This document shows positions 13,874 to 15,283 of a stretch of 64,000 nt of DNA, piece after piece. The first letter of the stretch is position 1. Each line of letters opens with the position of its first letter. Made by a program: the position numbers and the translations under genes. Source of the DNA: an uncultured Heliomicrobium sp. GTDB lineage: Bacteria > Acidobacteriota > Blastocatellia > RBC074. Under the pieces are notes generated by a model. It saw nothing but the letters and a program-made list of their open reading frames with translations. It was not told the DNA's origin and did not search any database. The stretch is taken from contig CAYYDG010000004.1 of NCBI GenBank assembly GCA_964470555.1, positions 33,053 to 97,052 on the forward strand. The letters run 5' to 3'.

Positions 13874-14163
13874 CATAGACAAAATCAGATTTTGGGTCTC
13901 AAAACTCCACCGATGATTTTGTTTTGAAATGAATAAGTCTTTCTATTTCTGTGTTTAATAAATTTTCTGCTCGCCTGGATTTCAGTGGCACAGTCGTTGC
14001 TCTAGGGATATGCGTAACGAGATGAGAACGAAAGTTCTTGAAGGTGTTTGAAGCACAAGCGGGTAAGTAGCAAGAAGCAATCAGTGAACCAGATACAAAG
14101 CCCGCGAAAAGTTTTCAGGAGCGCGGCTCCTCACGGGAATGTAGTTGCCGATTAAAGCAAAGG

Positions 14164-14265
14164 ACACGGGGTCGGATTTAGTCGGCAATTACAGCTTCGG
14201 CTCGCGCGCCTTACGTCACATAAAGAACGGGGCACATTGTGTGGCGTAAGGAGCGCGAGTCGGCC
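14164..14265 (+). repeat. Repeat unit 1 core
   Basis: ACACGGGGTCGGATTT...CGGCTCGCGC[CCTTACGTCACA-taaaGAACGGGGCACAT-TGTGTGGCGTAAGG]GCGCGAGTCG; nested helices P1/P2. Confidence 0.7.
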
Positions 14266-14367
14266 TTCAAAAAAAACGTGAGTCGAGCGCGAAATAGTGA
14301 GTTTGAATTTTTGACAACAAGTTTTGGAGCAAGACTCCTCTCGACTTTGTAGTCTGCGATCCGGAGA

Positions 14368-14464
14368 ACACGGGGGTCGGATTCGGATTGTTGGCTGCAC
14401 CTTCGATTCGTAAATCGCGTCGTATGTAGTACGGGGCACAATGTGCGGCGCGATTTACGGATCG
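14368..14464 (+). repeat. Repeat unit 2 core (divergent)
   Basis: ACACGGGGGTCGGATT; 16-bp closing helix CGATTCGTAAATCGCG/CGCGATTTACGGATCG (one G.U) around ...GTACGGGGCACAATG. Confidence 0.65.
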
Positions 14465-14532
14465 GTTCAAGGAGTAAGCCGAAGGGCAAGCGCCTTACGG
14501 TTTTCAAGTCTTGTGATTGATGGCTGGAAAAG

Positions 14533-14620
14533 ACACGGGGGTCGGATTTTAGTCGTCAATCACAACTGCGGTTCGCTGGCTGCGTTACCCGGAGAACGGG
14601 GCACAATCGGGTAACGTAGC
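14533..14620 (+). repeat. Repeat unit 3 core (divergent)
   Basis: ACACGGGGGTCGGATTTT; helix GCTGCGTTACCC/GGGTAACGTAGC around GGAGAACGGGGCACAATC. Confidence 0.65.
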
Positions 14621-14710
14621 TCGGCGGGCCGGATTCCTGAAACCGATGAGTTGAGTCGAAGCTGAAGAGATTGAAAGTTCGAGTTTTGTAGTCACCGGTT
14701 AAAGCAAAGG

Positions 14711-14811
14711 ACACGGGGGTCGGATTTAGTCGGTGATTACAATCTTCGGTTCGCGCGCCTTACGTGACGTAGGGAACGGGGCACACTGCGTTGCGTAAGA
14801 CGCGCGGACCG
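14711..14811 (+). repeat. Repeat unit 4 core
   Basis: ACACGGGGGTCGGATTT; P1 GGTTCGCGCG/CGCGCGGACC, P2 CTTACGTGACG/CGTTGCGTAAG around GGGAACGGGGCACACT. Compensatory relative to unit 1. Confidence 0.7.
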
Positions 14812-14894
14812 AAAACCAAAAGTTACGATTTGAAAACAGATTGAATTTGGAGCGCAGCTCCTCACGGGAATGTAGTTGCCGGTTAAAGCAAAGG

Positions 14895-14997
14895 ACACGG
14901 GGGTCGGATTTAGTCGGCAATTACAGCTTCGGCTCGCGCGCCTTACATCAAACAAAGAACGGGGCACATTGTGTGGTGTAAGGAGCGCGAGTCGGCC
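14895..14997 (+). repeat. Repeat unit 5 core (near-identical to unit 1)
   Basis: Differs from unit 1 by a P2 compensatory pair (CTTACG..CGTAAG becomes CTTACA..TGTAAG) and a loop change. Confidence 0.7.
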
Positions 14998-15234
14998 TTC
15001 AAAAAAAACGTGAGTCGAGCGCGATCAGCGATTTCTTGAGCGCAGCCCCAAACTGCGCTGGTTGTTCGGACGATTGACACCCTGTCAATGCGAAAGGCAG
15101 CCTTTGGAGCCTTCAAAACACGACTGCAACACATCTTTTTCCCGCTAATCAGGACTTCTCCCACTTGAAGTCCGAAGGCTCCCAAATTTTTACGGCTGCA
15201 CGAGAGTGCGAATCGGGTCCTCACCCCAGCAACA

Positions 15235-15283
15235 GACAGGCTGTCGGATGCTTTTTTGAATCCGACAGCCTGTCGCTGTTTTT
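15235..15283 (+). terminator. Strong rho-independent terminator
   Basis: Perfect 15-bp stem GACAGGCTGTCGGAT/ATCCGACAGCCTGTC with a 10-nt loop, then GCTGTTTTT. Confidence 0.6.

Follow-up and report, generated by a model that had tools for sequence, protein, structure and literature searches.

CrcZ/CrcY and CsrB/RsmX/Y/Z are signal-induced protein sponges that repeat one short exposed motif, in a copy number that varies by lineage; the motif is A-rich in CrcZ, a sigma-54-dependent decoy, and ANGGA, carried in short hairpins, in the Csr/Rsm RNAs. ToxI-type arrays consist of a promoter, tandem RNA repeats of ~36 nucleotides (nt), a terminator, and a gene, which, as far as is known, always lies downstream of the repeats and encodes the cognate endoribonuclease toxin. 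The Acidobacteriota rank among the most abundant bacteria of soil, and to our knowledge almost nothing is known about RNA-based regulation in this phylum. Here, we analyze a tandem array of structured RNA modules in a 64,000-nt stretch of DNA (the window; GenBank assembly GCA_964470555.1, contig CAYYDG010000004.1, positions 33,053 to 97,052) from an uncultured bacterium that was deposited as Heliomicrobium sp. and is placed in the Blastocatellia by GTDB. An earlier note, made from the sequence of the window, had flagged this array as a candidate novel noncoding RNA (ncRNA) locus. Several described RNAs bear comparison with it. In Pseudomonas aeruginosa, NrsZ is induced by NtrB/C and RpoN, comprises three similar modules, is processed, and base-pairs via a conserved loop motif (PMC4253122). 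The genes for GlmY and GlmZ are driven from a sigma-54 promoter that two or three TGTCN10GACA sites precede, and GlmY serves as a decoy for RapZ (PMC3045617). Among the Acidobacteria, Acido-1 and Acido-Lenti-1 (RF01686 and RF01687) are orphan ncRNA motifs with no consistent gene association (PMC2864571).

The window locus resembles NrsZ in being of the sigma-54 and enhancer-binding-protein type and in combining, in one predicted transcript, tandem similar stem-loop modules that each carry an invariant loop motif. NrsZ itself, however, has three ~60-nt modules of one short hairpin each, with the loop motif ACAGGCAG, whereas the RNA family to which the window locus belongs spans 0.56 to 1.75 kb and has one to seven modules of ~145 nt, each with two arms of 22 to 24 base pairs (bp), and also contains C-rich loops in a 5' and a 3' domain. 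Neither sequence nor Rfam links the two RNAs, their loops are unrelated, and we did not assign the locus to NrsZ, given that its loops (L1 and L2) are ACGGGGGUCGGAUU and ACGGGGCAC and that its neighbors are M16 peptidase and NUDIX genes. A sigma-54 promoter and TGTCN10GACA activator sites are common to GlmY and the window locus, which could be coincidence; GlmY and GlmZ differ in being ~150 to 200 nt long, in having three stem-loops and no tandem modules, and in coming from unrelated hosts. Since only promoter architecture is shared and Rfam gave no match, membership in the GlmY/GlmZ family was rejected. In contrast to CrcZ and CsrB, the window RNA shows ACGGGG in invariant loops of 10 to 16 nt on very long stems. 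Nor is it a CsrB/RsmZ-type sponge with many ANGGA motifs in its loops: L1 has UCGGAU without an A two bases upstream, an AAGGA that precedes it lacks conservation, and L2 has no GGA. ToxI-type arrays have the same layout as the window locus, but the units of the latter are 165 to 205 nt (~5 times longer) and its downstream gene, which encodes a NUDIX protein here and a metallophosphoesterase in relatives, is not conserved, so that it does not qualify as a type III toxin-antitoxin array. Acido-1 and Acido-Lenti-1 are likewise orphan ncRNA motifs of Acidobacteria, and their models had no match in the region even at E ≤ 10. The modular design of the window RNA, in which long variable arms carry invariant G-rich loops in one to seven copies, has no described counterpart, and this well-supported family, which comprises hundreds of sequences, joins the few large, structured orphan RNAs known from bacteria.

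RNA modules and their homologues in Blastocatellia

Comparative sequence analysis strongly supports the locus as a real, previously uncatalogued family of structured ncRNA in the Blastocatellia. Five head-to-tail units lie at window positions 14132 to 15010 on the + strand, with start-to-start distances of 204, 165, 180, and 183 nt as determined by reading the sequence and with a repeat finder, which agrees with the earlier note's description of five tandem structured units 165 to 205 nt apart. Each unit, or module, consists of two hairpins, P1 and P2, with invariant G-rich loops, L1 (ACACGGGGGUCGGAUU) and L2 (ACGGGGCAC). The near-invariant block and the loop motif that had been recognized in every unit were both recovered: the L1 block ACACGGGGGTCGGATT is exact in units 2 to 5, and four matches (≤3 mismatches allowed) were reached by none of 100 shuffles of the window; the L2 block ACGGGGCACA is exact in all five units. 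Folded individually, the units form two long hairpins of −60 to −70 kcal/mol (z = −6.6 to −8.7), whereas folds of the minus strand reach only −40 to −47 kcal/mol and are thus 20 to 30 kcal/mol weaker.

Homologues were sought, as the earlier note had proposed, and a covariance model, termed R1, was built from them. An exact-pattern scan (L1, a 30- to 60-nt gap, and L2) of species-representative genomes yielded 73 loci, all of them from metagenome-assembled genomes (MAGs) of Acidobacteriota/Blastocatellia, and an identical scan of JGI metagenomes added 68 loci, for a total of 141. From 189 unique units, 103 that were <88% identical to one another were kept, and RNAalifold analysis of these revealed two helices with 34 pairs and strong covariation, with compensatory double changes in 32 of the 34. 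Paired cells made up 93.9% on the consensus structure versus 27 to 40% when partners were slid by one to three columns, and the observed covariation was reached by none of 500 shuffles. Since G-U/U-G pairs exceed A-C/C-A pairs tenfold (542 versus 52) and R1 scores are strand specific (100 to 137 bits on the sense strand versus 20 to 36 bits antisense), the + strand appears to be the RNA strand.

Stems vary across the family while the loops stay invariant. L1 always reads RNAC-GGGGG-UCGGAUU (~220 copies), the only exception being unit 1 of the window, which has four G's, and L2 always reads AC-GGGG-CAC(A/G) (~238 copies). Arm lengths are likewise constrained, to ~22 pairs in P1 (inner mini-stem included) and ~24 pairs in P2. 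These patterns support selection for two invariant G-rich loops that are presented repeatedly on rigid arms whose own sequence is free. Given that module positions are orthologous between genomes, the copies are also likely to be maintained by selection; together with the 32 pairs that show double changes, this bears out the suggestion of old duplication with selection on structure. The locus defines an RNA that occurs across the class Blastocatellia, is strongly structured, and has evidently been under selection.

Rfam 15 gave no matches at the gathering threshold over the whole window and, at E ≤ 10 over positions 13700 to 15400, only spurious microRNA-like hairpin matches far below threshold; 18 homologous loci yielded tRNAs only, and full-text literature searches retrieved no description of this RNA. 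The Rfam check, in assigning no family, was in line with the earlier view that the element belongs to no known riboswitch class. Protein coding was rejected, as homologues differ by indels and by compensatory changes in their stems, neither of which suits a coding sequence. No credible open reading frame (ORF) had been recognized in the region before, and we likewise found that its overlapping minus-strand ORFs (93 to 98 amino acids [aa]) lack a credible Pfam match and that its small + strand ORFs extend to ≤57 aa.

Within the window, R1 had exactly five matches, all on the + strand, at 113 to 119 bits. Module 1 (14132 to 14278; 114.9 bits; −68.6 kcal/mol, z = −8.6) carries the L1 sequence ACACGGGGUCGGAUU, one G short of that in units 2 to 5, on P1 and the L2 sequence GAACGGGGCACA on P2. 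Modules 2 (14340 to 14480; 112.8 bits; z = −7.1) and 3 (14504 to 14647; 119.1 bits; z = −8.2) are orthologous to position 2 or 3 and to position 3 or 4 of other arrays, respectively, and module 4 spans 14679 to 14827 (118.0 bits; z = −8.7). Module 5 (14863 to 15010; 118.8 bits) is 96% identical to module 1, with the P0 hairpin described below and the 3' flank included, whereas every other pair of units is 66 to 77% identical; the outer units had previously been put at ~95% identity and the inner ones described as diverged. The compensatory G:C-to-A:U change reported for units 1 and 5 is evident from the sequence itself (TTACGTC/GGCGTAA versus TTACATC/GGTGTAA). Across the genome loci, ~219 of ~220 L1 loops have GGGGG; the GGGG of unit 1 L1 (14164 to 14178) reflects either an assembly error in a homopolymer or a recent mutation in the window genome.

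The first and last modules, P0 and 3' flank included, are the most similar pair in almost every genome (0.74 to 1.00 versus a median of ~0.69 for other pairs), as seen in the window (14118 to 14300 versus 14849 to 15030), in loci L007, L039, L062, L067, L071, and L089, and in others. Their identity within a genome exceeds that of orthologous modules between genomes, and such similarity of array edges is the opposite of the usual outcome of unequal crossing-over. This likeness points to concerted evolution of the terminal blocks and suggests either gene conversion or a need for the terminal blocks to be identical.

Predicted promoter, terminal domains, and terminator

TGGCAC-N5-TTGC is the sigma-54 −24/−12 consensus, and it first surfaced as a conserved upstream element when the flanks of one-module loci were aligned. 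The only exact copy on either strand of the window is a predicted promoter at 13986 to 14000 (+; TGGCACAGTCGTTGC). The related pattern TGGCA-N6-TTGC precedes the first module by 118 to 375 nt in 58 loci (62 loci had >500 nt of upstream flank), where it is the sole + strand match per locus, and the sigma-54 element was found in 54 of 55 metagenome loci. Based on the usual −12 spacing, the transcription start is predicted to lie near G14012.

The palindrome TTGTC-N10-GACAA has two exact copies in the window, both upstream of this promoter: site 1 at 13830 to 13849 (+) and site 2 at 13863 to 13882 (+; TTGTCTACGATCATAGACAA), which begins 33 nt after site 1. Both are putative sites for an enhancer-binding protein. 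When ≤1 mismatch is allowed, 48 of 56 genome loci have a copy of the palindrome 112 to 201 nt ahead of the −24 element (background, 2.6e-5 per nt), as do 38 of 55 metagenome loci, and paired sites ~33 nt apart recur in many loci. The window sites match the GlrR/QseF consensus TGTCN10GACA (PMC3045617). In the window, the interval from the enhancer sites to the promoter contains no exact IHF site (WATCARNNNNTTR). The promoter and enhancer sites, which lie upstream of position 14115, had been missed in the earlier note. With its −24/−12 element at a conserved distance and its upstream activator sites, the locus has the makeup of a sigma-54-dependent small RNA (sRNA) gene, and by these predicted elements the family is one of sigma-54-dependent regulatory RNAs with repeated motifs, here unusually large and modular. 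Its regulatory input is legible from sequence as sigma-54 plus a predicted GlrR-like activator site.

The purine-rich 5' leader (14012 to 14117, +) is shorter than in most relatives, which have an extra hairpin with a CCUCAC loop (alignment of 31 leaders). It is followed by the P0 hairpin, GGAGC-GCG-GCUCC and then UCAC (14118 to 14134, +), which includes a CCUCAC motif and is repeated at 14849 to 14865 and, as a variant, at 14326 to 14342. CCUCAC is 14- to 23-fold enriched in the RNA versus its flanks. Across the 64-kb window, CCTCAC/GTGAGG is scarce, with 8 copies versus 19 ± 4.7 expected; three of the eight lie inside the RNA gene.

Downstream of the modules, the array had been thought to end at the terminator. 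Instead, a conserved 3' domain of ~205 nt (15011 to 15216, +) and an invariant 15-mer (GUCCUCACCCCAGCA; 15217 to 15231, +) intervene. An alignment of the 3' domain from 32 loci (A3) has 33 predicted pairs, with compensatory changes in 21. In the window, this domain comprises, on the + strand, a hairpin with the loop CCCCAAA (15040 to 15058), a hairpin with the inner loop CCC (15060 to 15102), a helix (15106 to 15114/15174 to 15182) enclosing UUCCCGCUA and a hairpin with the loop UCCCACUU (15152 to 15173), and a further hairpin at 15198 to 15209. The 15-mer, predicted to be single stranded, lies directly 5' of the terminator; it is unique in the window and is present in 53 genome loci and 34 of 42 metagenome loci.

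The intrinsic terminator (15227 to 15283, +) consists of CAGC/GCUG outer pairs, a perfect 15-bp stem (15235 to 15249/15260 to 15274), GCUG, and UUUUU, and it ends 77 nt before the NUDIX ORF (nudF) at 15360, which matches the stem, the U-tail, and the distance to nudF given previously. The stem sequence differs among loci and covaries, with pairing and the GCUGUUU tail being kept. Given the single sigma-54 element, the single conserved terminator, and the failure to find an internal terminator within the array in the window, we consider the locus to be one transcription unit. These data support the view that the array is the central part of one ~1.27-kb ncRNA gene (window 13830 to 15283, +). 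Comparison among loci likewise supports the promoter elements, terminator, strand, secondary structure, variation in module number, and conservation.

Proposed function and competing readings

We propose that the RNA is a signal-induced, trans-acting multivalent decoy that titrates a partner binding its loops, a proposal that we regard as evenly poised between right and wrong. The activator, probably a response regulator of the NtrC/GlrR type that is encoded elsewhere, would bind the two TTGTC-N10-GACAA palindromes and activate sigma-54 RNA polymerase, and transcription would start near 14012 and stop at the intrinsic terminator at ~15283. The transcript would fold into five modules, each with two rigid arms (~22 and ~24 bp) of freely drifting sequence, and the tips of these arms would be the invariant G-rich loops, both of which hold ACGGGG; the 3' domain and the P0 elements would present C-rich motifs (CCUCAC and UCCCA). 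In trans, each molecule would offer ten ACGGGG loops (2 to 13 in relatives) and titrate one partner, in the likeliest case a protein that binds RNA or else perhaps a C-rich RNA. We favor a decoy because repeated invariant loops on variable arms, in a copy number that varies by lineage, resemble multivalent decoy RNAs; GlmY, with its shared activator-site consensus, CrcZ, and CsrB/RsmZ serve as precedents. Because the downstream gene varies, with a NUDIX gene here and a metallophosphoesterase gene elsewhere, we infer that the RNA acts in trans rather than in cis; the start site, the identity of the activator, and the decoy mechanism itself are proposed at the same level. With a defined promoter, ends, structure, and mutable loops, the RNA would offer a tractable entry to a new RNA-binding protein or RNA target and to a sigma-54 regulon in Acidobacteriota.

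Several observations weigh against a decoy. No gene for an enhancer-binding (GAFTGA-type) activator was found in the window or the 73 genome loci, and no candidate binding protein gene is linked to the locus. At 16 nt, the longer invariant loop exceeds typical sponge motifs (GGA or A-rich repeats) and would also suit pairing to some conserved RNA. The C-rich motifs, above all the invariant 15-mer beside the terminator, look like sRNA seeds and are left unexplained by the decoy model; they may serve a second, base-pairing function. Finally, NrsZ shows that a sigma-54-driven RNA of tandem modules can be a processed, base-pairing regulator (PMC4253122).

This last precedent underlies the strongest rival, namely, that the transcript is an NrsZ-like precursor cut by RNase E or RNase III in its A/U-rich spacers or long stems to yield module-sized sRNAs, whose loops, together with a 3'-terminal UCCUCACCCCAGCA seed beside the terminator, would pair with mRNAs. 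NrsZ, too, depends on NtrB/C and RpoN and has three processed modules with a conserved loop motif (PMC4253122). All modules of the window RNA lie under one promoter and one terminator, its spacers are A/U or purine rich, its stems, at 22 to 24 bp, are of sufficient length for RNase III, the invariant 15-mer occupies the position of seeds in terminator-proximal sRNAs, and CCUCAC is enriched as described above. Nevertheless, sites complementary to L1, L2, or the 15-mer did not occur beyond chance in the 64-kb window, which is a weak test; G-rich seeds would be unusual, and the modules lack terminators or U-tails of their own that could stabilize processed products. We consider such processing a genuine but lesser possibility. 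The earlier note had offered a multicopy sRNA array, a protein-binding scaffold, or a structured leader as explanations; the first two are both still live, while the structured leader has lost ground to the nonconserved downstream gene and the strong terminator.

A different reading sees a new class of large modular RNA in bacteria, whose rigid arms of ~22 to 24 bp hold out up to 13 invariant G-rich loops that would trap a core cellular RNA stoichiometrically, or whose loops would kiss the RNA's own C-rich loops to form an RNA-only particle; we judge this reading to be unlikely. We take two candidate trap targets as leads: the 3' strand of the initiator tRNA, to which L1 (CACGGGG|GUCGG|AUU) appears complementary over ~13 nt, and the 16S anti-Shine-Dalgarno sequence, with which GGGGGU could pair. 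The 14 tRNAs encoded in the 141 loci (Asn, Val, Lys, and Leu, none of them the initiator) showed no special complementarity. If either form of this reading were true, a sigma-54 signal would globally affect translation or RNA metabolism rather than a few mRNAs.

Higher-order RNA particles have been reported for other large ornate bacterial RNAs, and the window RNA could likewise be a self-assembling or scaffold RNA in which G-rich loops (GGGGG) pair with C-rich loops (CUCCC and UCCCA) within or between molecules to build such a particle. G-rich and C-rich loop classes do occur together in every family member, the rigid arms are of conserved length, and by inspection CGGGGG could form 6 bp with CUCCCG of the 3' domain. 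We nonetheless find self-assembly quite unlikely, since the complementary stretches are short, the one-module forms lack the CUCCCGCUA element, and L025 has a changed 3' motif but unchanged loops.

The RNA could also be a cis-acting leader, that is, a very long 5' untranslated region controlling read-through into the downstream gene (nudF in the window), and the downstream gene of the window, like that of most loci examined, does share the orientation of the RNA. This gene, however, differs by clade, being a NUDIX gene, a metallophosphoesterase gene, or, in L025 and L059, a gene on the opposite strand; the terminator is a perfect 15- to 19-bp stem, looks constitutive, and has no conserved competing antiterminator; and a noncoding gap of at least 77 nt follows it. 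These findings make a leader highly improbable, and assignment to a riboswitch or cis leader was rejected.

The locus might also be a repeat with no function, namely, a mobile element in decay, a cluster of REP or MITE sequences, or a type III toxin-antitoxin repeat array. Tandem repeats that precede a terminator and a gene would fit this reading, as would assemblies that often break inside the arrays, but it is scarcely credible in view of the number of syntenic loci, which is one or two in each genome and only one in a complete 9.5-Mb chromosome, the confinement of all five R1 matches to the array, the lack of similarity to plasmid and phage collections, the strand-specific structure, the conserved promoter, and the absence of a conserved downstream toxin gene.

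Family forms and genomic setting

Complete promoter-to-terminator units were available for 75 loci, whose predicted transcripts span 564 to 1,750 nt and contain one to six L1 loops, one to seven L2 loops, and one to seven modules. Three architectures can be distinguished: multimodule arrays, which include the window locus; one-module forms with a longer 5' domain that carries several CCUCAC-loop hairpins; and ~600-nt forms composed of one full module and two further P2/L2 hairpins without P1/L1. Since metagenome assemblies often break inside arrays (L004/L073, L019/L069, and L034/L038), MAGs give only minimum module counts, and many draft genomes are expected to lack the element or to contain it in truncated form; L004/L073 is one array of a single contig that was split over two stored stretches.

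In ~40 loci, the array is divergent from an operon encoding an M16 peptidase, a protein of unknown function, and an ABC ATPase. The second of these corresponds in the window to a 532-aa ORF (10812 to 12410, −) between the M16 peptidase and ABC ATPase genes, which has no Pfam match and is kept in the same position at 43 to 90% identity in ~40 loci; it may encode a divergent second M16-like subunit. One-module forms adjoin FabF. A NUDIX gene lies downstream only in close relatives of the window locus, while in many lineages a gene for a ~430-aa metallophosphoesterase, followed by a family 2 glycosyltransferase gene, takes its place. This pair was rejected as a conserved downstream partner, since no homologue of it was found in the window.

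The sole enhancer-binding protein encoded near any of the 141 loci is an RtcR-type sigma-54 activator (RtcR/CARF plus Sigma54_activat) in L136 (418 to 2046, +), 4.7 kb upstream of the RNA promoter. It is followed by a subtilase gene instead of rtcBA, and its proximity is probably a coincidence. A tRNA-Asn(GUU) gene lies 3 to 4 kb from many one-module loci (L012, L015, L025, L026, L047, L061, L076, and L136), and the likeness of its 5' end, UCCUCAG, to the recurrent UCCUCAC motif of the RNA is probably coincidental as well.

The same RNA is present in several MAGs titled "Heliomicrobium sp." or "Heliobacteriaceae" (L002, L006, L009, L016, L021, L029, L039, L041, L045, L056, and L063). Given that these share M16/NUDIX/accD synteny at 60 to 90% protein identity with Blastocatellia MAGs, the labels look wrong.

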